From: Marispirochaeta sp.
GTDB taxonomy: Bacteria; Spirochaetota; Spirochaetia; JC444; Marispirochaetaceae
Reading direction: 5' to 3'
Assembly: GCA_963676835.2 (NCBI GenBank)
Contig: CAXXFF010000001.1
Span: 1 to 64,000, forward strand
DNA length: 64,000 nt
This document shows positions 2,650-25,012 of the stretch, one piece after another; position 1 is the first letter of the stretch, and every line of letters begins with the position of its first letter. A program made the position numbers and the translations under genes. The notes under the pieces are model-generated. The model saw only the letters and a program-made list of their open reading frames with translations, did no database searches and was not told the origin of the DNA.

Positions 2650-2745
2650 ATTATAAATAACGCTACTGTAAGTAATTAGGGACAATTTAAGCCACTAAGG
2701 AAGTTCCTGGTAAAATAGGATATCTTTATAGCCTTAAGAAGGCAA

Positions 2746-2798
2746 TTGAAGTAGTTGCATAATGGTTGTATAATATGTGTATAAAGGACTACAACCAT
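2746..2798 (+). promoter_or_regulatory. sigma70-type promoter and probable autoregulatory operator of the TA operon
   Basis: TTGAAG(2746)-17 bp-TATAAT(2769); perfect inverted repeat ATGGTTGTA (2762-2770) / TACAACCAT (2790-2798). Confidence 0.65.
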
Positions 2799-3084
2799 GG
2801 CGAGTATAACTATACGAAATATACCAGATTCTGTTTTAAGTCGTGTAAGAACTCTTTCTGAGGTCGAAAAGCGCAGTATAAACAGTGAATTCTTGATACT
2901 TATTGAAAAAGCTTTAACAATAGAAATAGAAACCCGGAAGAGTACAAATACTCCAATATCAAAGGAAAACCAGATCAAAATGTGGGAATCTCTTATTGGA
3001 ACCTGGGAAGATGATCGATCTGCAGAAGAAATCATAAGCGATATATATAGTAGTCGCACAAAAGGGCGGGAAGTCGAGTTATGA
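2797..3084 (+). CDS. Arc/ribbon-helix-helix antitoxin (FitA/VapB-like)
   Basis: MASITIRNIPD...RSINSE N-terminus; C-terminal GTWED motif; 4-nt overlap with PIN toxin. Confidence 0.85.
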   Translation: MASITIRNIPDSVLSRVRTLSEVEKRSINSEFLILIEKALTIEIETRKSTNTPISKENQIKMWESLIGTWEDDRSAEEIISDIYSSRTKGREVEL

Positions 3085-3473
3085 TTCTTCTCGATACAGA
3101 TATTTGTGTTGAATTATTGCGCGGAAACTTGCAAGTAATAGAAAAAAGAAAAGAAGAAAACGATAGTATTGCAGTATCTTTTATGACTGCTTCGGAACTA
3201 TATTATGGAGCGTATAAGTCAAAAAAGCCGGCAGAAAACAGTTTACGCGTAGAAGAGTTTTTACTGACTGTTAATATAATCCAAAGCAATATAAGAATTG
3301 CAAAACTATTCGGACAGCTTAAAAGCAGATTACAGTTAAATGGATTTCCGATAGAGGATGCTGATATTTTCATTGCTGCTACGTGCCTTGAAGGATGTGA
3401 AAAACTGATAACCGGTAATGTAAAACATTATAATCGTATCGATGAGCTAAAGATAGAAAATTGGATACGGTAA
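3081..3473 (+). CDS. vapC: PIN-domain toxin, VapC family
   Basis: ILLDTDI, ELYYG, DADIFIAAT, LITGNVKHY motifs. Confidence 0.92.
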   Translation: MILLDTDICVELLRGNLQVIEKRKEENDSIAVSFMTASELYYGAYKSKKPAENSLRVEEFLLTVNIIQSNIRIAKLFGQLKSRLQLNGFPIEDADIFIAATCLEGCEKLITGNVKHYNRIDELKIENWIR

Positions 3474-3486
3474 CTACGTGAGAAAT

Positions 3487-3667
3487 ATATAACCAGCAAT
3501 TGGAACAGACAAAACCTATTGTCATGGGTATTTGCATTAGCATAACGGTCGTGGATGCTGTTTCTGGAATGAGAGTGTAAAATCGGTGGTATAATGAAGT
3601 TATTCAGGCAGCAAAAACACATGCCAATGCTTCCTGCCCGGCTTTGCAGCTCAAATGGATGTTATAT
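3487..3667 (+). repeat. attC-like site 1 (complete, 181 bp)
   Basis: ATATAAC (3487) ... GTTATAT (3661); arms CAGCAATTGGAACAGACAAAACC / GGCTTTGCAGCTCAAATGGAT form an imperfect hairpin. Confidence 0.8.
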
Positions 3668-3723
3668 AGGTATAGGGTATAAATGACAGAATCTCTCGTG
3701 AAAGGTTATAGAGGCATAATTAA

Positions 3724-4449
3724 ATGAAAATCTATGCAATCGGTGATATTCATGGAAATTACGATCTGTTAAAAAAGCTCTTTATGAAAATAACTGAAGA
3801 AATTCAACCGGAAGACAAAGTTGTTTTGCTTGGTGATATAATTGACGGTGGAGCAAAAACCAAAGAATGCATAGACTTGATTCTTGAGAAAAGTGATGAT
3901 TACAACATAATCGCATTGAAGGGAAACCATGAAGAGTGGATGTTAAACACGTTGAGAGATCATAGTAAACATTCCTGGATTATAAGCATGGAAGGTTTAT
4001 ACACTATAAAAAGTTATTCACAAACTGCTTAAGACGAAATAACTACAAAAGCAAAAAAGATAGGTCCAGAGTTAATTACAGATAATATTTCATTGCCATA
4101 TGATTCCTTCTTTAATGCAGTACCAAAAGCACATATCAATTTCTTCAATAATTTGAAGAACTATTACAAGGTAGGGAATTACATATTTACTCATGCTGGT
4201 GTTGACCCATTCGCTACAAATTTGATTGAGATGGAAGAACGTAAATTTAGATGGGGTTTTGATGGCTTTCCGGAAAAATATAATGGAACGAACGTGATTG
4301 TTTACGGTCATTTTAGTAATCTTGCTATTAAAACCGGAGACAGTATTAAACCGTATATCTGCAATAATACCATATGTTTGGACACTCAAAAATATGGCGT
4401 TCTAAGTGGCTTAAGAATACCTGGGAAGAAGTTAATACAAGTTTCATAA
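3724..4449 (+). pseudogene. Calcineurin-like Ser/Thr protein phosphatase (metallophosphoesterase) interrupted by an in-frame TAA at 4030-4032
   Basis: GDIHG, GDIIDGG, KGNHE in the 5' part and HAG, VYGH, LDT in the 3' part; both ORFs are in the same frame. Confidence 0.85.
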
Positions 4450-4469
4450 AGGTTAATCCTATTTCCAGA

Positions 4470-4560
4470 CGATTCCGGACTTAAAACGTAGTAAAATGCA
4501 GATGAGTTGCAGCACAAACAGCGCCAGCTTAACGGTTTACAGCTCAATTGGATGTTATGT
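4470..4560 (+). repeat. attC-like site 2 (right half only)
   Basis: GATTCCGG..CGTAGTAAAATG..CAGCACAAACAGCGCCAGCTTAACGGTTTACAGCTCAATTGGATGTTATGT matches the right halves of sites 3 and 5; no TAAC-CAGCAATTG left arm; left coordinate approximate. Confidence 0.75.
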
Positions 4561-4694
4561 TGACACAAATTTTATTGAATAGGATATTCATCAAATAAAG
4601 ATGCTTGGAAGCTAATTTTGAACAATTAGAGTGAAACAGTGAATAAAAAGATATTTCCAAAACCAATAAGCTCTTCACTGAAAAGTAGAACTAC

Positions 4695-5456
4695 ATGAAT
4701 ATTCTTGTGACAAGTGATTTGCATGGTAATATGGATGCCTTTAAAACCTTCTCTGAAATGATAAAAAAAAAGTATGATTACGGTATTATAGCTGGTGATC
4801 TACTTGAGGACTCTATAACTTTAAATGAAATGCAAAATGCTTTATCTCTGGAACCTGATGATTTACTAGAAGAACTATTCGATCCATATGATACCATTGA
4901 AGATCTTGAAGATCGGGTAGTTGAATATAAACTAAATCCGGACTCCTTACTATCAAAGACTCTTCAAGTGAAAGAAAATGATTACAGGAGTGTATTAAAT
5001 AGTGCACTCAAAACTATCTTCGTATTACGAGGTAACCATGATCGCTCAAAGTGGGAAAGCAGAGAGAATCTGTTTAACATTAACTTAAAAAGGTTTGAAA
5101 TTAAAAGTTATAATGTTGTTGGGTTTGAATATACTAGGCTTTTTACAACAGAAAAACAAGAAGAAGAGCTAATCCGACCACTCTATGAATTAGTTGACAC
5201 TAAAACTATTCTTGTTACACATGCACCTGCATATAATATGCTTGATAGAAACTATAGAGGTATACCAATAGGTAGTAAACCAATTGCAAAACTGGTTCAA
5301 AGATGCTGTCCTGCTGTACATGTATTCGGTCATGTACATGATTCTGCTGGTATACACGAGAACTTTGCTAACGTTTCATTCCCGAAGAGGAAAAGATTTT
5401 ACAAAGTTGTCGAACGACGATCAAAATTTAAGATTAAGCAAGTAAATCTTTGGTAG
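4695..5456 (+). CDS. Metallophosphoesterase (Icc/calcineurin-like)
   Basis: SDLHG, AGDL, RGNHD, THAP, GHVH motifs. Confidence 0.88.
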   Translation: MNILVTSDLHGNMDAFKTFSEMIKKKYDYGIIAGDLLEDSITLNEMQNALSLEPDDLLEELFDPYDTIEDLEDRVVEYKLNPDSLLSKTLQVKENDYRSVLNSALKTIFVLRGNHDRSKWESRENLFNINLKRFEIKSYNVVGFEYTRLFTTEKQEEELIRPLYELVDTKTILVTHAPAYNMLDRNYRGIPIGSKPIAKLVQRCCPAVHVFGHVHDSAGIHENFANVSFPKRKRFYKVVERRSKFKIKQVNLW

Positions 5457-5464
5457 TGGTGCAA

Positions 5465-5634
5465 ACATAACCGGCAATTGGAGCAGACAAACCTACTGTC
5501 ACAGTTTGTGCAGTAATTGAAACATTTAGATGTAACTTTAAGGTGTTTCCGAACTGGAATCGTAGTAAAATGCTTGTGAGCTACAGCACGAACAGCGCCA
5601 GCTTATCGGTTTGTAGCTCAATTGGATGTTATAT
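5465..5634 (+). repeat. attC-like site 3 (complete, 170 bp)
   Basis: ACATAAC ... GTTATAT; CAATTG(G)AGC..ACAAACC pairs with GGTTTGT.GCTCAATTG; further arm pairing GTTTGTGC/GCACGAAC. Confidence 0.82.
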
Positions 5635-5693
5635 ACACAAGGGTAAGAGATGTGTATAAAATTATAGTAAAATGATAATGTATTGAGGTCGTA

Positions 5694-6809
5694 ATGAATA
5701 GCGGTAAAATATCTATTGAATTACAAAGAAAATTGTTTGAAATTCCCGAATACAAAAAATACTTTAAATTAATGGGTGGTTACCAAGAAAATGGCTTATG
5801 GATACAGAAATATGATCTAATGACTGGAAACCCAGAGGATAATATACCAAAAAATATTTTGGATATATTTCTAAACGAGGTTGATGTAAAACATAAGATT
5901 CATATACGTGTTATTAGTGATCAACAAAATATATCTGACTTCATCATTAGTGATAAAATAAAGCGAATGGTTGATAAAGATATAATTTTTAGCCAAATCT
6001 CAATAGCTGAATTTAATATAGAGAAAAAGAATCGCCAACAAGAATCGGAAAGAAATAAGAGTTTTTATAGTTTCAACACTGAAGAACAAATAGAAGATGA
6101 ATTAGATTACAGATTTAATATAATTAAAGAGTTAAATAAAAACGAAAGGCTACTTGCAGCTAAAGTAAGCGATTTATTAAATGAAAAGCCAAAAGTAAAT
6201 AAAAATGAATTTATTACTGGTGATTTAGATTGTAAATATTTACAGAAAGCACCTGAAAATTGGCCTAACAAGATTGATCTTCCAGAATCAATAAAGAAAT
6301 TATTAGGTAAACAATATTCTAAGCATAGTCTTAAGTACGCAATAGATCATGGAGAAGAATTGTACAGTGATGAGGAGTTGGAAGAAAGAGTTGGTAATGG
6401 GAGAGCATGGTCTATGCCCATATTGCAAGATAAATTAATATATTTTGAAAATTATGAATCAATATGCAATACTTTAGAAACTTTTATTCAGAATTTAACT
6501 CAGTTACCTTTTGTATTATCAAAAGCTACCGGATACGGTGGGATTGGAATATACAGACATCTTCATACGGAGGCTGCATTAGCATTTAGAGAAGACCTAC
6601 CTAATATAATTTACCTGGAGTTGTATGGATTACTAAGAGCAGTAAATGGAAAAGATTTTTCTACGAAAGAATATGAAGAATATCTTGTAAGGAAGAAATA
6701 TTCTGAGGGGAAACTATTTATACCTGACGGCCCATTAGTTATTCAAATGCTAAATGCAACTTTATCTAATTACAGTTATCCGGGAGTTGGCGTGCCATTA
6801 TACCTATAA
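5694..6809 (+). CDS. Hypothetical protein (371 aa), cassette-borne
   Basis: Long AT-rich ORF with GAGG RBS, filling the interval between two repeats; no recognised motif. Confidence 0.75.
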   Translation: MNSGKISIELQRKLFEIPEYKKYFKLMGGYQENGLWIQKYDLMTGNPEDNIPKNILDIFLNEVDVKHKIHIRVISDQQNISDFIISDKIKRMVDKDIIFSQISIAEFNIEKKNRQQESERNKSFYSFNTEEQIEDELDYRFNIIKELNKNERLLAAKVSDLLNEKPKVNKNEFITGDLDCKYLQKAPENWPNKIDLPESIKKLLGKQYSKHSLKYAIDHGEELYSDEELEERVGNGRAWSMPILQDKLIYFENYESICNTLETFIQNLTQLPFVLSKATGYGGIGIYRHLHTEAALAFREDLPNIIYLELYGLLRAVNGKDFSTKEYEEYLVRKKYSEGKLFIPDGPLVIQMLNATLSNYSYPGVGVPLYL

Positions 6810-6847
6810 AATCAGAACAAATTGAAACCTCAACACGATGATAGAGT

Positions 6848-6905
6848 ACGTAACCAGCAATTGGAGCAGTCATGGCTACTGTCATGGTTCGTGTATTATT
6901 GGAAA
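6848..6905 (+). repeat. attC-like site 4 (left half only)
   Basis: ACGTAACCAGCAATTGGAGCAGTCATGGCTACTGTCATGGTTCGTG matches the left arms of sites 1, 3 and 5; no CAGCTCAATTGGATGTT follows; right coordinate approximate. Confidence 0.72.
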
Positions 6906-7188
6906 CCAGGTGATTGAAGATAGATGAATTGCAGAATACAGAAATTTTGTTAGAGAAGGAAATAAAGATCAAGAACTTCTTGAATATTGAAAATGGTTCA
7001 GTACAAGCGTATTGCTAACATCTGGCCAGGGATAGTGTGTACAATAATCTTGATAAACCCGATCTTCGTGGACTATCGTTTCATATTGAAAATGATACTC
7101 CCCCCTATGAACAGGATCATTCAAAAGGATTATCCCATGCATTTAATAACAAAAAAAATAATGGCTATGTCGTAAGGTCATTTCAAAG

Positions 7189-8733
7189 GTGGTAGCTTTG
7201 TCTATAACTCATATAGTGGAAGTGCCGATTATTGTGCTTCTTGTCATTGTAACCATAGCGATTCTGATAAGTGGTAAGCTGCTATTACGATTTATCCGGT
7301 TAAAGAGGGCTGTATATAGTGGGCTACAATTTATCAGGGACAATCCTAGCATATACAATTATAAGGAATTTGATGTCTCTAAATACACGGGTAAGGAACT
7401 TAACAACCTGGCTAAAATCATCAATTATCTGGTAAATAAGCTTGTACACGCAGGCTGCGAACATAAAGAGGTTATTGTTGCTCTATCAATACAGAAGACT
7501 TTCATGAACCCCATGTTGGAACGGTCTGAAGAAGGCAAGACACTCTCGACTGGAACTTTGGACAGTCCTCTCTTTAGGCTGTTCGGATATCATGAAAGTA
7601 TTGACCCTGTTTCTGGTGACTTTTTTAATTTTCTGAAACTGGACGAAAACCATTATGCAATGATCCAGTTAAATATATCTGGACATGGGATTAACGCTTC
7701 CATAATTAAGGCACAGATTGCAGCGCTGTTCGTAGACTATTTCATGAACGTGCGGAATATGGCCAGGAGCACAGGCAATTTACAATATAACCTCAGAGAA
7801 TTTGTTCTCAAGATCAATGAATTCTTCTATGAATTTGGATTCAGCGGTAGGTTCGCTGTTTTCAATCTTTTGGTGATAAATTTTCGTACAGGTGAGTACA
7901 AAAGAGTCATGGCCGGTAGTAATCCTATAAGGATTTATAAAGCAAAAGACCAGAAAATCAAAATAATACCTTCAAGCAGTCCCTCGGCAGGTACATTAGA
8001 TCCCAGTATATTTGACATAAAACCCACCATATGGAAGGTTACGAAAGGTAAGCTTAACAGTGGTGACATCCTATTTCTTTGCCGCGATGGGTTTGAGGAG
8101 TCTTACCGTTTCCTTCGAGATAAAAACTTTAACATGATTGAATATAAGGACACTGACCGGGAACTGAGAGAAAAAGACCAGTTATTGATCGATTCTTCTT
8201 ACGTAGAATCATCAAAGCCAGGTCACGAAGCTAAAGAGGTAAAAACAGCCACTCTTGATGAAAAAGTTGATATAGACATGAATGATCAGTTTCGAAAAAG
8301 TGTTGGCTTTTCAAAGTATAGACGGATACACGCTTCTGAAAACACAGAGGAGTTTGATGAAACCCGAATACACGATATCATTGAGAAGGTGATGAGTCGC
8401 GGGCAATACATCCTATACCGGAGGGTAGATGCTACCATAGATAAACCACTTCACTTCAACTTCAGTTCCCTTAAAGGTACAGGTGAGGAATGTGTACTTG
8501 CTTTGATTTCAGTGGAAAAAGTATTTCGAATAATACCAGATCGTTCAGGCGGGCACCGATCAAAGGTACGTGTAGACAAAAAAATCGACAGTTTCTTAGA
8601 AGCATGCTTTGTTGAGTTCAAAGAATTTTATAATAATCCTATACAGGAAGAACCGGGATATATCTACTACTCTCATCTCAGGGAAGATGATCAGAGCGAT
8701 GACTTATGTGTGTGGGCATACGAACAAAAGTAG
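7189..8733 (+). CDS. SpoIIE/PP2C-family phosphatase-like protein with N-terminal TM helix and HAMP-like linker; probably 5'-damaged
   Basis: VSGDFF, NISGHG (Asp replaced by Asn), GRFAVF, RDGFEES, QSDDL motifs. Confidence 0.75.
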   Translation: MVALSITHIVEVPIIVLLVIVTIAILISGKLLLRFIRLKRAVYSGLQFIRDNPSIYNYKEFDVSKYTGKELNNLAKIINYLVNKLVHAGCEHKEVIVALSIQKTFMNPMLERSEEGKTLSTGTLDSPLFRLFGYHESIDPVSGDFFNFLKLDENHYAMIQLNISGHGINASIIKAQIAALFVDYFMNVRNMARSTGNLQYNLREFVLKINEFFYEFGFSGRFAVFNLLVINFRTGEYKRVMAGSNPIRIYKAKDQKIKIIPSSSPSAGTLDPSIFDIKPTIWKVTKGKLNSGDILFLCRDGFEESYRFLRDKNFNMIEYKDTDRELREKDQLLIDSSYVESSKPGHEAKEVKTATLDEKVDIDMNDQFRKSVGFSKYRRIHASENTEEFDETRIHDIIEKVMSRGQYILYRRVDATIDKPLHFNFSSLKGTGEECVLALISVEKVFRIIPDRSGGHRSKVRVDKKIDSFLEACFVEFKEFYNNPIQEEPGYIYYSHLREDDQSDDLCVWAYEQK

Positions 8734-8838
8734 TAGTAGGAATCAAAATACGGACTATTCATTTCCAGAAATCAAAAAGCTGGTATTAGTTAAAGGCGTT
8801 CCATAAATTACCAAAGGCTGATTGTAAAGGGTATGCTA

Positions 8839-9010
8839 ACATAACCAGACTTTGGAGCAGTCAAATCCTTTTGTCATGGTTTGTGCAGCAAGGGAACACG
8901 ATGAATGTAAGTTTCATGTGATTCCGAGCTGATATTGTAGTAGAATGGATAAGTAGTTGCAGCACTAACCAAGCCAGCTTAACGCCACGCAGCTCAATTG
9001 GATGTTATAC
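8839..9010 (+). repeat. attC-like site 5 (complete, 172 bp)
   Basis: ACATAACCAGACTTTGGAGCAG ... GCAGCTCAATTGGATGTTATAC. Confidence 0.8.
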
Positions 9011-9062
9011 GGACAAAATTTTTGACAATTAAAATGTTTACAGACAATGAAATATATATTTT

Positions 9063-9689
9063 GTGAAAAGGTTAGAAATGAAAATAATATTAGCTGATAT
9101 TAACATAAACATGACAGACGCATGGACAAAAGAATTCTCTGGTTATAAAAACATTTCAATAGTTAACGATAGTATTTTTAACGTGAAAAGTGATGCAATT
9201 ATCTCCCCTGCAAATAGCTTTGGTATTATGGATGGAGGAATTGATGGCAAATTACGTGATTTCTTCGGGATATCGATTGAAACTGCTGTAAGAACTAAAA
9301 TAACACAAGAATATTGGGGCGAGTTGCCTGTCGGCAGTGCTATTATTGTTCAGACAGGCAATAATCAATTTCCTTATATGATTTCAGCACCAACCATGCG
9401 GGTTCCAGAAGAAGTTTATAATTCTCTTAATGCTTACTTAGCCATGAGAGCAATCCTTACTTTAGCACAAACAATTAAAGAAATAAACACAATAGCAGTG
9501 CCTGGATTATGTGCCCTTTCAGGTAGGATGCCTTATGAAATTGTTGCACGGCAAATGAGAGTGGCCTACGATAAAATCATTATTGGCAGTATACAATATA
9601 GCCATTGGAGAGAAGAAAAGCAGCTTCAGAGTTATTTGAAGTGTGAAACTGATCAGCTACCATATGATTTAGAAAAGCATAAGCATTAA
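9063..9689 (+). CDS. Macrodomain (ADP-ribose-binding/hydrolase) protein; ATG 9078 is an alternative start
   Basis: SPANSFGIMDGGID, APTMRVP, AVPGL motifs. Confidence 0.88.
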   Translation: MKRLEMKIILADININMTDAWTKEFSGYKNISIVNDSIFNVKSDAIISPANSFGIMDGGIDGKLRDFFGISIETAVRTKITQEYWGELPVGSAIIVQTGNNQFPYMISAPTMRVPEEVYNSLNAYLAMRAILTLAQTIKEINTIAVPGLCALSGRMPYEIVARQMRVAYDKIIIGSIQYSHWREEKQLQSYLKCETDQLPYDLEKHKH

Positions 9690-9808
9690 AGAAAAGCAAA
9701 CCTTGATAAGAAATTAAATAGTGGAGAATAGTTTATAAGGATATATGAAAACGATTATGCTATCGGACTCAAAAATTATTGCACTATTCTTTATATGGAG
9801 AGATAATT

Positions 9809-10060
9809 ATGGAAGTTCAGGATAACACCGTATATGTATTCAGATCGACAATAGGTGATTTTGTCATAAAGTATATTCCTTCTTCTAAAAAGTGGCTGCT
9901 TTCTGTTAATGACACCGGCTATGGATTATTTCCATCAGCAGCCGAAGCTGCTGATAGTGTTAACCGGCAAAAAAGCGGTTTTTACAAATGGGATGAACTT
10001 GAACAGATTTCAGAAACCGTCCCCTGTGGAATAGACCAGTGGGAAGTCTTTAATCCATAG
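9809..10060 (+). CDS. Small hypothetical protein (83 aa)
   Basis: GGAG RBS before ATG 9809; Trp/Gly-patterned sequence looks protein-like. Confidence 0.65.
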   Translation: MEVQDNTVYVFRSTIGDFVIKYIPSSKKWLLSVNDTGYGLFPSAAEAADSVNRQKSGFYKWDELEQISETVPCGIDQWEVFNP

Positions 10061-10081
10061 CCCGGAGACTGATAAATCTAC

Positions 10082-10864
10082 CTACCAGCCTCCGGAGGCG
10101 CCACCGCCGCCAAAACCGCCGCCACCGCCGGAGAAACCTCCGAATCCTCCGCCGCTGGAAAATCCTCCGGAAGATCTGCCGTAATGTCTCCTTGGTCCGC
10201 TCCCGAGCATGGCGCCCCATAGAAGTGCAGAACCAAAAGAACCGCCGCGCCTTCTTCTTCTGAACGCTGCACTTATCGCCAGTATCACAAAGAAAGCAAT
10301 AAAGTTAAAAGCTCCGCCGCTTGACGAACGGGAAGGCTGAGAAGACCGGACTTGTGAATCGGATATCTGAACCGTCCCGGCTATTATACCGCCAATAGCT
10401 TCAACCGCATTTGCTATTCCTGCATCAAAATTTCCAGCTTTGAATGCCGGCTGAATAATGGACCTGATAATATAGCCCGATTTCATATCTGTCAGTGTCC
10501 CTTCGAGACCATAACCCACTTCTATACGTATTTTCTTTTCACTTAATGCTATAAGAAGCAATACTCCATTATCCGAACCTGCCTGTCCAAGCTTCCATGA
10601 ATCAGCAACCTGGATGGAATAATCCTCAATAGTAGTACCCTGAAGACTCTTTACGGTCAGTACAGCTATTTGCGCTCCTGTCTTTTCTTCCACAGCAGTC
10701 AGATATTGATTAATGCTGCTCTCTGTTGATGAAGAAATTAAATTCGCATTGTCGGTAACCCGCTCATTGAGTGCCGGGACTTCGAGTGCAGTTATGGGTA
10801 CTGCCAGGAATAGACAAGCCAGAAAGGCCATAGGAATATATAGTTTTGATAGCTTATTTTTCAT
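10082..10864 (-). CDS. TPM-domain (YgcG-like) membrane protein with Gly-rich tail
   Basis: Signal peptide, VTDNA, QIAVLTV, IRIEVGYGLEG, GGGFGGGGASGGW. Confidence 0.92.
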   Translation of the reverse strand: MKNKLSKLYIPMAFLACLFLAVPITALEVPALNERVTDNANLISSSTESSINQYLTAVEEKTGAQIAVLTVKSLQGTTIEDYSIQVADSWKLGQAGSDNGVLLLIALSEKKIRIEVGYGLEGTLTDMKSGYIIRSIIQPAFKAGNFDAGIANAVEAIGGIIAGTVQISDSQVRSSQPSRSSSGGAFNFIAFFVILAISAAFRRRRRGGSFGSALLWGAMLGSGPRRHYGRSSGGFSSGGGFGGFSGGGGGFGGGGASGGW

Positions 10865-10867
10865 ATT

Positions 10868-11533
10868 TCAACTCAATTCCTGCGGACGATTGTCCAGTTC
10901 GTCAGTATCATCTTTCCTTCGCGTAATATGCTGTGTAAGAATTTTACCGCAATCTTCTACGCTTGCAATAATACCGTCTGTAAGTGCCCCATGAGAAATG
11001 GACAGGGTAAGATCATGAACAATTTTATCCCAGGTGCCGGGTTCAACCTTTTTATTTATACCCTGATCAGCAAGTATCACGGCCTTTCTTTCCAGCATGG
11101 ATATGAAAATGAGTATTCCCGTCCGATCCACTGTATCGCACGCACCGGATTCAATAAAATGAAGAAGAGCGCGTTTCTGCACTGCCAATTCCATTTTTTT
11201 TCGGGATACAATCAGTCGGTCAATAAAAGGGAATTGTGCAGCTGCGTATAAAAAAGCGCCTGAAATTATACCTGTCAAACCATATAAGAAGGGCAGCCGC
11301 GACGAATTGAATCCCCAGAAAATTCCAGACAGGAAATCTTCTATTGCTGATCCGGAAAGGACAGATATATTGAAAACCAGAAATCCACCGATTAAAGCAA
11401 AAATAATTTCATTGAATCCATAATCATCGGATTCAGCTATAACGGCAGTAACAATTTCTGCACCGGTTCCGGACTCAGCTTTTTCCACAGCTGAGCTTAT
11501 CCGTTCCTTGTCGTTTTCTGTTAAAATTGCCAT
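10868..11533 (-). CDS. TPM-domain membrane protein (LemA-associated)
   Basis: AVEKAESGTGAEIV, RTGILIFISMLERKAVILADQGI, DELDN. Confidence 0.88.
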   Translation of the reverse strand: MAILTENDKERISSAVEKAESGTGAEIVTAVIAESDDYGFNEIIFALIGGFLVFNISVLSGSAIEDFLSGIFWGFNSSRLPFLYGLTGIISGAFLYAAAQFPFIDRLIVSRKKMELAVQKRALLHFIESGACDTVDRTGILIFISMLERKAVILADQGINKKVEPGTWDKIVHDLTLSISHGALTDGIIASVEDCGKILTQHITRRKDDTDELDNRPQELS

Positions 11534-11540
11534 AGGCGTG

Positions 11541-12146
11541 TCAGAACTTTACTTCCGGTGCAGAATCCGCACCGCTGGCAGCTGAGAAATATGCTTTTTC
11601 CCTGAATCCAGTCATATTTGCAATAATCACCCGGGGAAACTGACGTATGTAGGTATTGTATCCCTGAGCAGACTCATTAAATCTTTTCCGTTCAACAGAA
11701 ATACGGTTTTCGGTGCCCTCCAGCTGATCCTGAAGTGCAAGAAAGTTCTGGTTCGATTTAAGATCCGGATAGTTTTCAGTCACCACCAGAAGCCGTTGAA
11801 GTGCAGATCCGAGTCCTGACTGTGCTTCCTGGAATCGGTTAAAAGCCTCAGGATTATCAAGGATTGATTCATCCATCTGCATAACTCCACCCGCTCTGCT
11901 TCTGGCTTCAGTAACAGCGGTTAATGTTTCCTGCTCCTGATTAGCATATCCTTTAACTGTCTCAACAAGGTTAGGGATCAAATCAAATCTTCTCTGGTAC
12001 TGATTTTCAACTTGTGCCCATGCTGATTTTACCCCCTCATCGAGGGTGACCATCTTATTATAGGTACCCTTAAAACTGCTGTAGGTTATGAAAATAAACA
12101 GCAGAATGATCCCGAGAATCACCAGCCATATTTTAGACTTCTTCAC
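11541..12146 (-). CDS. lemA: LemA family protein (GTG 12146 has the better RBS; ORF open to 12161)
   Basis: WAQVENQYQRRFDLIPNLV, ENYPDLKSNQNF, LEGTENRI. Confidence 0.95.
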   Translation of the reverse strand: MKKSKIWLVILGIILLFIFITYSSFKGTYNKMVTLDEGVKSAWAQVENQYQRRFDLIPNLVETVKGYANQEQETLTAVTEARSRAGGVMQMDESILDNPEAFNRFQEAQSGLGSALQRLLVVTENYPDLKSNQNFLALQDQLEGTENRISVERKRFNESAQGYNTYIRQFPRVIIANMTGFREKAYFSAASGADSAPEVKF

Positions 12147-12314
12147 CTTAATTGACCTCACTCTTGTAAAAATTAATCTCGATCAAATGAACCATCCAAC
12201 TCTTTTAAATGTACATGTATAATACTTATTATACCCGCCGCCGTCCATATTTTCAGACCTTGCTGTACGGTCAGGTTCTTGTAAATCTCCATAAGCTAAT
12301 TTATTATTGCCGGG

Positions 12315-13736
12315 ATGATTGATTTCAGTTCCCGGCAGAATGTTTACTGTGTCGGTATAAAAGGTACCGGAATGGCAGCTCTTGCAGAGTTCTGCCGCCA
12401 CGCCGGAGCACATGTGGAGGGTTCAGACGTAGCTGAACGCTTCTACACAGATGATATTCTTGAAAGCCTGGATATCCCTGTTCACACTCCTTTTAATGCG
12501 TCAAATCTGCCCGAAAAAATAGATTTTTTGTTTTATAGTGCCGCCTATTCTCCTGAAACAAATCCGGAGTTGAAAGAAGCAGCATCCCGTGGCGTTAAGA
12601 TGTACAGCTATCCTCAGGCACTCGGATTAATTTCTGCCGGCATCCCTGTCGCAGGTATCGCCGGGGTTCATGGAAAGACCACTACCACTGCATTGGCTGG
12701 AACAGTCGCAAAGGAAACCGGCTTCCCTGCAGCTGCCCTCGTCGGGTCTGCAGTTTCCAGTTTCGGCAACCGATCCTGTATGTTCGCTGGGGACAAAGCA
12801 CTTATAGCTGAGACCTGTGAGTACCGCAGACATTTCCTGAACATACATCCACGGTGGATCATTGTTACCAGTATTGAACCGGATCATCTTGATTATTTTT
12901 CAGGTTATGATGATATCTACAACGCATTTATGGAATATACCTTACAACTGCCTGAGGGAGGATCATTAATATACTGCGCTGATGATGCAGGTGCCACACA
13001 GCTCGCCGGTGAGGTTTCTACCAGGCGCTCCGATATCAGGCTCATATCATATGGATTTACTGCGAAGGGAGAGTACAGAATCACTGATAGGGTTCTTAAA
13101 AAGGAACGGCTTGTTATCAGACTGCAGGGTATAGAGCAGGAAATAAGGTTGAGGATCCCGGGAGATCATACTGCCCGTAATGCCGCAGGTGCCGCTGCCC
13201 TAATGCAGACCATGGCGGATGATCTGAAAATATCATTGGATAAATCATCTTTAGCGGAATCTTTTGAATCTTTCAGAGGCAGTAAACGGCGAAGCGAAGT
13301 GATTGGTGAGGCTGGGGGAATCCTTTTTATGGATGATTATGCCCATCATCCGACTGCCATAACAACTACACTGTCCGGCATACGCTCTTTTTACCCTGGA
13401 CGCCGGATTATCGTCGACTTTATGTCCCATACATACTCAAGAACTGAATCGCTGTTGCAGGATTTTGCCGCCGCCTTTTCCGATGCGGACATGGTTATTC
13501 TTCACCGAATTTATGCATCTGCCAGAGAGAAAAAGGGGAATATTACCGGGGAAACCCTGTATAATGAAACAAGAAAACATCATGACACAGTTATCTATAT
13601 TGCAAACCCCGATGATGCACATAAACAGCTCGTTGAAGTGTTAAAACCGGGAGATCTCTTCATTACCATGGGGGCCGGCGATAACTGGCATGTGGCCTAT
13701 AAACTGTATGATCTTATAAGATCAGAAGGGGAATAA
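12315..13736 (+). CDS. murC: UDP-N-acetylmuramate--L-alanine ligase
   Basis: GIKGTGM, GVHGKTTTT, DHLD, DDYAHHP, MGAG. Confidence 0.95.
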   Translation: MIDFSSRQNVYCVGIKGTGMAALAEFCRHAGAHVEGSDVAERFYTDDILESLDIPVHTPFNASNLPEKIDFLFYSAAYSPETNPELKEAASRGVKMYSYPQALGLISAGIPVAGIAGVHGKTTTTALAGTVAKETGFPAAALVGSAVSSFGNRSCMFAGDKALIAETCEYRRHFLNIHPRWIIVTSIEPDHLDYFSGYDDIYNAFMEYTLQLPEGGSLIYCADDAGATQLAGEVSTRRSDIRLISYGFTAKGEYRITDRVLKKERLVIRLQGIEQEIRLRIPGDHTARNAAGAAALMQTMADDLKISLDKSSLAESFESFRGSKRRSEVIGEAGGILFMDDYAHHPTAITTTLSGIRSFYPGRRIIVDFMSHTYSRTESLLQDFAAAFSDADMVILHRIYASAREKKGNITGETLYNETRKHHDTVIYIANPDDAHKQLVEVLKPGDLFITMGAGDNWHVAYKLYDLIRSEGE

Positions 13737-23377: not shown

Positions 23378-24208
23378 ATGATAAAACACCCCTGCAGCCT
23401 GAAATTTGATGGATCGCCCATGATCATGGGGATTATTAACTGTACCCCCGACTCTTTTTTCTCCGCTTCCCGGGCAGAAGCTGTAAAGGATGCAGAGGAT
23501 AAAGCCCGTAAGCTGATTGATCAGGGAGCAGATATCCTTGACCTGGGGGGAGAATCCAGCCGTCCCGGTTCGGACTATATTTCAGAAGAGGAAGAGCTGA
23601 AGCGGGTTATTCCTGCGGTAGAGGCTATACGCAGTTTCAGTGATATACCCTTGAGTATCGATACTCGAAAGTCCGAGGTAGCCAGACAGGCACTGTTATC
23701 CGGAGCAGATATTATCAACGATATCTCAGCCCTGGAGGATGACCCGAAACTTGGTAAAGTGGCAGCAGATACCGGGGCTTGGATTGTGCTTATGCATAAA
23801 CGCGGCCGACCGGATACCATGCAGCTTAATCCCTCCTATAATGACACGCTTCAGGAGATCGAAAGCTACCTTCACAAGGCTGTCGCCAGGGCAGAAGCTT
23901 CCGGAATAAGCAGGGAGAGGATTATTCTCGATCCCGGTATCGGTTTCGGAAAACGCCATCAGGATAATCTGATGGTGCTAAAAGAGACTGGCTTTTTCCG
24001 GCAGATGGGGTATCCTGTTCTCATCGGTCATTCAAGAAAATCTTTTCTTGAAGTAATTACCGGAAGACAAGTACATGAACGGCTTGCCGGAAGTATCGCT
24101 GCCGGTGTACTTGCCCAGGTTTTTGGCGCCGATATCCTCAGAGTACACGATGTCGCGGAAACACGGGATGCCGTGCTGGTAACAGAAGCCGTCATCGGGG
24201 GCGATTAA
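23378..24208 (+). CDS. folP: Dihydropteroate synthase
   Basis: MGIINCTPDSF, GGESSRPG, DPGIGFGK, SRKS, LRVHDV. Confidence 0.95.
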   Translation: MIKHPCSLKFDGSPMIMGIINCTPDSFFSASRAEAVKDAEDKARKLIDQGADILDLGGESSRPGSDYISEEEELKRVIPAVEAIRSFSDIPLSIDTRKSEVARQALLSGADIINDISALEDDPKLGKVAADTGAWIVLMHKRGRPDTMQLNPSYNDTLQEIESYLHKAVARAEASGISRERIILDPGIGFGKRHQDNLMVLKETGFFRQMGYPVLIGHSRKSFLEVITGRQVHERLAGSIAAGVLAQVFGADILRVHDVAETRDAVLVTEAVIGGD

Positions 24209-24211
24209 AAA

Positions 24212-25012
24212 GTGGAGTGGCTTAATCAGATCTGGGTATTCAGAGAACTCTTTCGTCCTGTTCTGGATATCCTTATTCTTTCAGTTATAATTTATCAGAT
24301 TTACCAGATTCTGGTGCAGACCAGGGCAATTCAGCTCGTAAAGGGTGCTTTTCTTATGGCCCTTATTTACGTTCTGGCCTTTTTTCTGGAGCTTACAACC
24401 CTTTTATGGATTATGAACGGACTGGCCACTGTGCTGGTTATTATTATTGCAATCGTTTTTCAGCCTGAGCTTAGAAATATCTTTACCACCATCGGCCGCG
24501 GTGACTGGCTCAAGCTGCAGAACAGGGGTACATCCTTTCAGCTGGACAGTGTTTTGAATGCTGTCGAGGTTCTGTCCGGCAGACAACGGGGTGCTCTTAT
24601 TGTCTTTACCAGGCAGGTAGGCTTGAAGAATATAATAGAAACAGGCACCAGGCTCAGCGCGGCCATCAGCTCATCTCTTATTCTGACAATCTTTGGTCAT
24701 GACACTCCTCTGCATGACGGTGCAGTTATTCTGCAGGGCGGGGAGCTGTTGTCTGCAGGATGTTTCCTCCCGCTTTCCGAGCAGTCTGATATACGCCGCA
24801 GTTTCGGAACCCGTCACCGCGCAGCTCTTGGACTTGCAGAAGAGACCGATGCTGTGGTTCTTATAGTTTCCGAAGAGACGGGAGCAATTTCTCTTGCCTA
24901 CAATTCCAACCTGTATTACGACCTTACATTAAACGAGGTTCGTTCAACCCTGCGCCGCTTGTTGAGCATACATGAAGACGAAGCGCTTGAGGAGACAGGT
25001 CTTGATAGTTAG
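24212..25012 (+). CDS. cdaA: Diadenylate cyclase CdaA
   Basis: Three N-terminal TM helices, FQPELR, LHDGAV, GTRHRAA, VSEETG. Confidence 0.95.
   Translation: MEWLNQIWVFRELFRPVLDILILSVIIYQIYQILVQTRAIQLVKGAFLMALIYVLAFFLELTTLLWIMNGLATVLVIIIAIVFQPELRNIFTTIGRGDWLKLQNRGTSFQLDSVLNAVEVLSGRQRGALIVFTRQVGLKNIIETGTRLSAAISSSLILTIFGHDTPLHDGAVILQGGELLSAGCFLPLSEQSDIRRSFGTRHRAALGLAEETDAVVLIVSEETGAISLAYNSNLYYDLTLNEVRSTLRRLLSIHEDEALEETGLDS

Follow-up and report, generated by a model that had tools for sequence, protein, structure and literature searches.

The first 64,000 nucleotides of contig C1 of a Marispirochaeta genome (the window, whose coordinates are those of C1) begin with gene cassettes separated by copies of one repeat family. 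We are nearly certain that these repeats are the attC sites of a sedentary chromosomal integron, located at its decaying distal end, and that its integrase (IntI) and attI site lie ~31 kb upstream on the adjoining contig C3. The integron is genuine and, as such, ordinary; its long attC variant probably carries a promoter of its own, and the integron appears to be linked to a second capture system. A variable loop of ~75 nt accounts for the extra length of the long sites, and its conserved columns are a -10 box that the initial annotation of the window did not see. From sequence, conservation, covariation and synteny we infer recombination and transcription, and we consider the two parts together, integron and loop promoter, reasonably probable.

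The genome of the window (G000, contigs C1-C4) was compared with five congeners (G001-G005) and a member of another family (G040). Sites were called in stretches (L numbers) fetched from this genome and its relatives. The A family denotes the repeats of the IntI arrays, and the B family the sites of an array on C2 with a short recombinase. Ninety-one two-armed A-family sites were called, mostly of ~101 nt or 168-185 nt.

attC sites and integrase of a sedentary integron

The features of the window are as follows.

1-20, + strand: exact 20-nt overlap with the start of contig C3 in reverse complement; this 20-mer is confined to the two contig ends
51-2649, + strand: IS21-family element, one of 9 copies; istA in pieces, istB at 1807-2547
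2650-3493, + strand: cassette with a FitA-like antitoxin (2797-3084) and a PIN toxin (3081-3473)
3487-3667, + strand: full long attC site, 181 nt, poor fold; -10 box TATAAT with TG extension at 3590-3595
3724-4449, + strand: metallophosphoesterase cassette gene, interrupted by one in-frame stop (4030-4032)
4450-4560 (start approximate), + strand: attC site without its left arm; -10 box TAAAAT (4492-4497), right arm and GTT core kept
4695-5456, + strand: metallophosphoesterase cassette gene
5465-5634, + strand: full long attC site, 170 nt; -10 box TAAAAT at 5566-5571
5694-6809, + strand: orphan cassette gene, 371 aa
6848 to ~6934, + strand: decayed attC site, left arm only, R'' core partly mutated and 5/7 complementary to the cassette start
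7001-7071, + strand: right half of a B-family site as a weak remnant (E 0.026; 0.27 genome-wide)
7189-8733, + strand: SpoIIE/PP2C-domain gene of 514 aa; a chromosomal paralog shares 34% identity with it
8774-8836, + strand: B-family site, left half only and decayed, immediately 5' of the 8839 attC site (opened B::A composite)
8839-9010, + strand: full long attC site, 172 nt; -10 box TAGAAT at 8941-8946
9063-9689, + strand: macro-domain gene, the last cassette of the array, with no attC site behind it
9779-10060, + strand: open reading frame of 93 aa in the chromosomal flank, not a cassette

Five co-oriented copies of one repeat family had been reported in the window and all were recovered, three as full sites (170-181 nt) and two as half-sites (profile E-values 2.5e-18 and 9.1e-7; the first repeat profile was built without these two). 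Their description as bounded by ..TAAC and GTTAT.. holds for the three full sites, the partial copies having one core each. The arms pair with an unpaired G and a mismatched spacer as described; the G sits on the top strand, and the paired arms span ~35 bp. Across a hand-picked alignment of 28 sites from five genomes (18/28 from the genome of the window), compensatory changes altering both sides were found at 11 of 35 stem pairs, and 96.6% of alignment cells were paired, compared with 26-44% once the partners were slid. The family fold contains an unpaired 3x3 spacer and is bulged at positions 16 and 23. Long sites have a core hairpin of ~100 nt with an unpaired loop of ~75 nt; in the short form a small hairpin closes the stem at the place of this variable loop. 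All elements of attC anatomy are thus represented: AAC/GTT cores, an unpaired central spacer, L boxes with extrahelical bases and a variable terminal structure. The bottom strand is more stable than the top strand in 22 of 24 sites of this genome. Extrahelical base 16 of the bottom strand is C in 28/28 sites, whereas PMC5027507 describes it as 'usually a G' and no single bulged base as essential; C at this position is for that reason taken as a variant and not as an exclusion from attC.

A genome search with the repeat profile gave 32 hits, all within three stretches (five in the window, 19 on C3:622-26818 and eight on C4:336376-342088) and not scattered. One attC site on C3 is split in two by an IS3-like element (G000:C3:14386-15790).

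The window contains no intI, as had been stated, and following the array beyond base 1, as had been advised, leads to both intI and attI on C3. The genome encodes eight tyrosine recombinases; IntI (C3:27840-29099) diverges from the C3 array, is intact, scores 355.7 bits with TIGR02249 (cut-off 265) and keeps R218, K243, H350, R353, H376 and Y385 together with the integron-specific insertion. A candidate attI, with its GTT core at ~C3:27655, lies between intI and the first cassette, and the motif adjoining it is conserved in position in G002 and G004. Among titled genome records, those whose IntI is closest (67% and 50%) belong to Marispirochaeta, which bears out the earlier call of a spirochaete. 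At the start of intI, an in-frame ATC eight codons 5' of the first ATG is preceded, at a spacing of 7 nt, by AGGAGG, which resembles a ribosome-binding site (G000:C3:27800-27840; L002:13800-13840); G002 has an ATC at the same spacing, and this may be a non-standard start. The genome contains lexA; examination for LexA control of intI found no box common to the upstream regions of recA, lexA and intI. A GAAC-N4-GTTT-like motif is common to intI leaders (stretches L010, L009 and L008) and one loop class in G001, G003 and G005; it was dropped as a shared operator or SOS box, being absent 5' of recA and lexA.

Several observations join the window to the C3 integron. The reversed start of C3 overlaps the start of C1 by the 20-mer listed above, and a cassette reading frame is open across the join. 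GC skew is positive and continuous across it, with its maximum at C1:50216, which places the array near the terminus and the bottom strands of its sites on the leading-strand template. An inverted IS21 copy at C3:727-3322 and the copy in the window bracket a flipped array block of ~760 bp, and the two share a 6-bp target duplication that is swapped between them. DNA was lost next to the window copy, beside which ~60 nt of the 5' end of the FitA/PIN cassette are gone. In G002, the one congener used for comparison of the locus, the genes behind intI are conserved and the far end of the array abuts the same 70-kb block, inverted. The initial annotation had proposed either the distal end of a sedentary integron or an integrase-less attC cluster; overlap, skew and synteny favour the former, so that the window is not a CALIN (cluster of attC sites that has no integron integrase). 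The inverted block (9830-79960 in window coordinates) surrounds the replication terminus, and one of its breakpoints relative to G002 is the array end. The open reading frame at 9779-10060 is assigned to the chromosome because G002 carries it near TPM/LemA genes, far from its array: G002:256087-259817 aligns to window 9830-13571, beside these genes and 75 kb from that array.

The proposal of a lineage-specific attC family is borne out by the five congeners, all of which carry an IntI relative and hits to the repeat with different cargo (G005 gave one weak hit in the first repeat search and a full site in later site calling). Thus neither an absence of IntI from the genome and its relatives nor an identical gene order across relatives, either of which was to speak against an integron, was found. 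Cassette starts and ends are complementary at 7/7 positions in 49 of 57 units, compared with 11.5 expected (maximum 24 in 5000 shuffled pairings; units <2.2 kb between consecutive full sites, longer ones dropped), and within a single site in only 18/90. Over all arrays this complementarity extends to 9 bp, two beyond the 7-bp core: in 55 distinct units pairing includes positions 8 and 9 (0.78 and 0.85 vs 0.32 and 0.34) but not position 10. More extended end pairing, as if attC were added at hairpin tips, found no support (own ends -7.8 vs other ends -7.1 kcal/mol; background from position 10).

The cassette region has a GC content of 35%, compared with 48% for the genome. Its FitA/PIN cassette has a promoter-like site of its own at 2746-2774 and homologues in G002 and G003 (89-94% amino acid identity). 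For the stop at 4030-4032, the contigs of the sequencing run, probably the source data and not independent, offer no alternative letter. The cassette of the 4695-5456 gene ends in GTTATGT and ACATAAC, complementary at 7/7 positions. The 371-aa orphan matches nothing in Pfam or PADLOC, and no homologue but itself was found among proteins of 204-650 aa. A search of the window against Rfam, with E up to 0.1, found nothing, and stretches L001-L003 had no match at gathering score. Across arrays the cargo is of the usual kind and comprises toxin-antitoxin pairs, Fic proteins, phosphoesterases, macro and SLOG domains and orphans. Some cassettes exist in duplicate, or are found again in congeners at a different position.

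Gene-less cassettes recur. One of 333 nt occurs in four copies, 90-94% alike (C3:14060-14392 and 24064-24395; C4:337708-338040 and 339154-339486), two per array. Its ends show long pairing, and Rfam has no match to it; when it is read as a third split attC, the cores agree in only two of the four copies. Another, ~266 nt long and GC-rich in its core, is common to G001, G003 and G005, often first behind attI (L020:5503-6190, L037, L023, L024). In G003 the A-family array is much larger and spreads over two stretches of ~110 kb each (C1:1691000-1799000; C5:1-110000).

A further cluster on C4 (335390-342090; L003) consists of an attI-like site and seven attC sites, without intI or a remnant of it. 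It opens with a copy of the attI motif and a copy of a motif 118 nt upstream, both present only at C3 and C4, and shares near-identical cassettes with the main array. In G002 this attI-like site recurs at the same chromosomal place, following the same gene. Its first cassette there (L038:7329-9395) encodes a DRT2-type reverse transcriptase (PADLOC 2e-137) with a non-coding leader of ~360 nt. The palindrome 118 nt upstream of attI is not palindromic at this second locus of G002, where only the GAGTTATACTG half is conserved.

A promoter-like -10 box in long attC loops

In an unanchored alignment of the 28 sites, only five loop columns were at least 90% conserved: G-16, T-12, A-11, A-9 and T-7 of the top strand, a pattern that we take to be that of a sigma70 -10 box. 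The hexamer expected of such a box, with invariant T-12, A-11 and T-7, is present. TA[ATG]A[AC]T keeps a constant register in 59 of 70 distinct long sites, compared with one on the other strand and a mean of 2.0 (maximum 7) in shuffles, and it lies on the top strand, directed toward the next cassette. When loops were clustered at 65%, 10 of 14 representatives carried the box, with 0.2 expected, at a mean loop identity of 47%. Among short A sites the box was found in 1/18. The B family repeats this distribution, with a top-strand box in 7/7 long sites (143-172 nt, about four types) and 0/12 short ones. Boxes in the window begin at 3590, 4492, 5566 and 8941, the truncated 4450-4560 site having retained its own. 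The recA promoter of the host is canonical (TTGAC-N17-TA.TAT) in six genomes.

In established integron biology, IntI acts on the bottom strand folded into a hairpin, cassettes are excised by attC x attC recombination and are reinserted at attI. The IntI described here would fold its attC sites, excise cassettes and reinsert them at attI in the same way. Joints in the contigs of the sequencing run can be accounted for by the likeness of the repeats to one another and are not taken as evidence of excision or integration. A promoter in the loop would point along the array, start transcription about 50-63 nt before the crossover and transcribe whichever cassette is next downstream. A cassette with a long attC site would thus supply a promoter to its downstream neighbour, and distal cassettes such as those of the window would therefore need not be silent. 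Judged from sequence features, we think it probable that the loop is a sigma70 promoter.

Several findings weigh against this combination of integron and loop promoter. Eleven of the 70 long sites, including both from G040, lack the box, and the TG extension accompanies only 13 of 63 boxes. A generic sigma70 scan calls none of the four window boxes, because their -35 regions match at no more than 3/6 positions; a relaxed -35 was found in 42/63 sites compared with 11.6 in shuffles, under a rule chosen post hoc. The hexamer shows no genome-wide excess on the sense strand of intergenic regions (2.18 vs 2.21 per kb); the same test gave only a slight TTG excess 17 nt upstream. Site copies are related by descent, and the seven long B sites amount to about four types only. 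Folded singly, the bottom strands give z-scores of -2.91 (5465 site), -1.45 (8839 site) and +0.75 (3487 site), the last with no hairpin in its minimum free energy structure, so that one of the three full copies in the window is a poor hairpin. The contig join relies on the 20-nt overlap, across which no read was shown to run.

It is conceivable, although unlikely, that the integron is an ordinary sedentary one and that TAnAnT serves recombination and not expression, as an easily melted or RNA polymerase-opened loop that nucleates hairpin extrusion from double-stranded DNA, help being needed since long sites on the leading-strand template fold poorly. The bottom strands do lie on that template (skew maximum C1:50216), the box is confined to long sites and, according to PMC5371416, extrusion from double-stranded DNA is the only folding route there. 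Melting, however, requires AT richness and not strand-specific invariance of T-12, A-11 and T-7 along the gene direction, and roles in recombination and in expression are compatible with each other. Slightly less likely still is that the box binds some other protein or has been inherited as a relic, with no present role in transcription, the long form having originated in a single capture of promoter DNA (from the attI/Pc region, for example, Pc being the array promoter). One loop class does share GAGTTATACTG with attI regions, and the generic promoter scan was negative. On the other side, the box columns were kept while neighbouring loop columns diverged to 47% identity, and the unrelated B family repeats the pattern of long sites with and short sites without the box.

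That the window cluster is a separate CALIN, not joined to the C3 integron and served in trans by the same IntI, appears very improbable. The overlap is only 20 nt, a single contig runs past base 1 at low depth (2.7 vs 10-14) and the flanking block is inverted relative to G002; yet the 20-mer is unique, the skew continuous, the IS21 target duplications pair over the join, the cassette frame stays open and the array of G002 abuts the same block. Finally, a reading in which positions -8 to -6 (ATG or CTG) form the start codon of a leader peptide running through the attC hairpin and coupling translation to the next cassette was rejected as largely refuted: 55/63 boxes end in ATG or CTG, but no one frame is kept up to the crossover (22/17/24 for the three), 32/63 frames contain a stop and T-12/A-11 are left unexplained.

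B sites and composite sites

The array on C2 (G000:C2:545000-571222; L025, L059) is cassette-like, carries B sites and is headed, divergently, by a recombinase of 282 aa (570374-571222). This protein scores 177.4 bits with TIGR02249 (cut-off 265) and lacks the integron insertion, and is thus not classed as an integron integrase. The system is present in all five congeners, the copy in G002 having one stop. Right ends of B sites were matched 24 times, 19 of them with both arms.

In the IntI arrays, some cassettes have a B right half at their start and a B left half at their end, just before an A site; nine of ten B-left hits have an A site immediately after them. In the excised circle of such an opened composite, the A site is nested in the loop of the B site (bottom-strand z -8.3). 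An unopened composite lies in the C2 array (~568190-568430; L059:2190-2430) and reads B left half, -10 box, short A attC and B right half, with a damaged left core. A BrnT/BrnA cassette stands between plain B sites in the short-recombinase array of G002 and, 91% identical, as an opened composite in the IntI array of the genome studied here. The SpoIIE unit of the window shows weak remnants of the same B::A layout: its B-left remnant (8774-8836; E 0.021, 0.21 genome-wide) is weak alone and is positioned as in eight other B-left hits. Composite sites may therefore be sites with two addresses, read by both systems. The default attC size limit of IntegronFinder is 200 nt, which composites of ~350 nt exceed.

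Tentatively, and with somewhat less than even confidence, these observations can be combined. Long sites would be promoter modules throughout the genus, both capture systems using short promoterless and long promoter-bearing sites, and the expression of a cassette would be set by its upstream neighbour and not by its distance from Pc. An IntI-type attC nested in a B loop would give a cassette two addresses and let it move between systems, and the second attI without intI would be fed in trans.

Comparison with known integrons

In the standard model, a chromosomal array is a low-cost memory: cassettes close to Pc are expressed, those farther away are mostly silent, and scattered cassette-borne promoters make the exceptions. 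If it is true, an attC-borne promoter makes expression travel with the recombination site, and gives a reason for very long attC loops, which are otherwise a hindrance to folding. The composites bear on how cassettes acquire attC sites and cross between recombination systems. Spirochaete integrons, attC sites above 150 bp and internal promoters are already known; a conserved promoter-like signal inside attC may be new, and is absent from the standard model. The open-access literature yielded nothing describing a conserved promoter in attC, nested or very long attC sites or short-integrase systems, although supplementary attC lists could hold similar long sites, and no account of these features for Marispirochaeta with an integron.

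The integron resembles the Vibrio cholerae superintegron with its VCR repeats in its divergent intI, its attI, its single attC family, its toxin-antitoxin and unknown-function cassettes and its gene-less cassettes. As in 25/30 sedentary chromosomal integrons, the bottom strand lies on the leading-strand template (PMC5371416), and extrahelical bases occupy positions 16 and 23 as in known attC sites (PMC5027507). The repeats were correctly described as longer than classical attC sites: 57-141 bp is quoted in PMC5371416 and PMC5027507, compared with 168-185 nt here, and a 2026 preprint mentions attC sites of 'more than 150 bp' (10.64898/2026.03.17.712381). Unlike other sedentary integrons with homogeneous attC sites, this one has C at bottom-strand base 16, end complementarity up to 9 bp and a -10 box in the loop. 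The window alone and the C4 cluster would each be called CALIN (PMC4889954); in contrast to CALIN, the window is joined to an intI locus and the C4 cluster retains its own attI-like site, at the same place in G002.

The likeness to Treponema drawn by the initial annotation is loose. The spirochaete host, strain-specific cassettes and long and short attC sites in one array are shared with Treponema chromosomal integrons, whereas their intI is co-oriented with the cassettes and their attC sites measure 63-132 bp, and the covered parts of that paper describe no promoter in attC (PMC3607928). Expression of distal cassettes independent of Pc is likewise known for cassette-borne promoters, which sit in gene-less cassettes, 5' leaders, IS elements and group IIC introns (10.1101/2023.11.21.568050; PMC6557892; PMC8876359); Blanco et al. 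noted some scattered starts, including in attC, and judged them possibly spurious. Unlike those cassette-borne promoters, the signal described here belongs to the recombination site itself, as a fixed component throughout the family.

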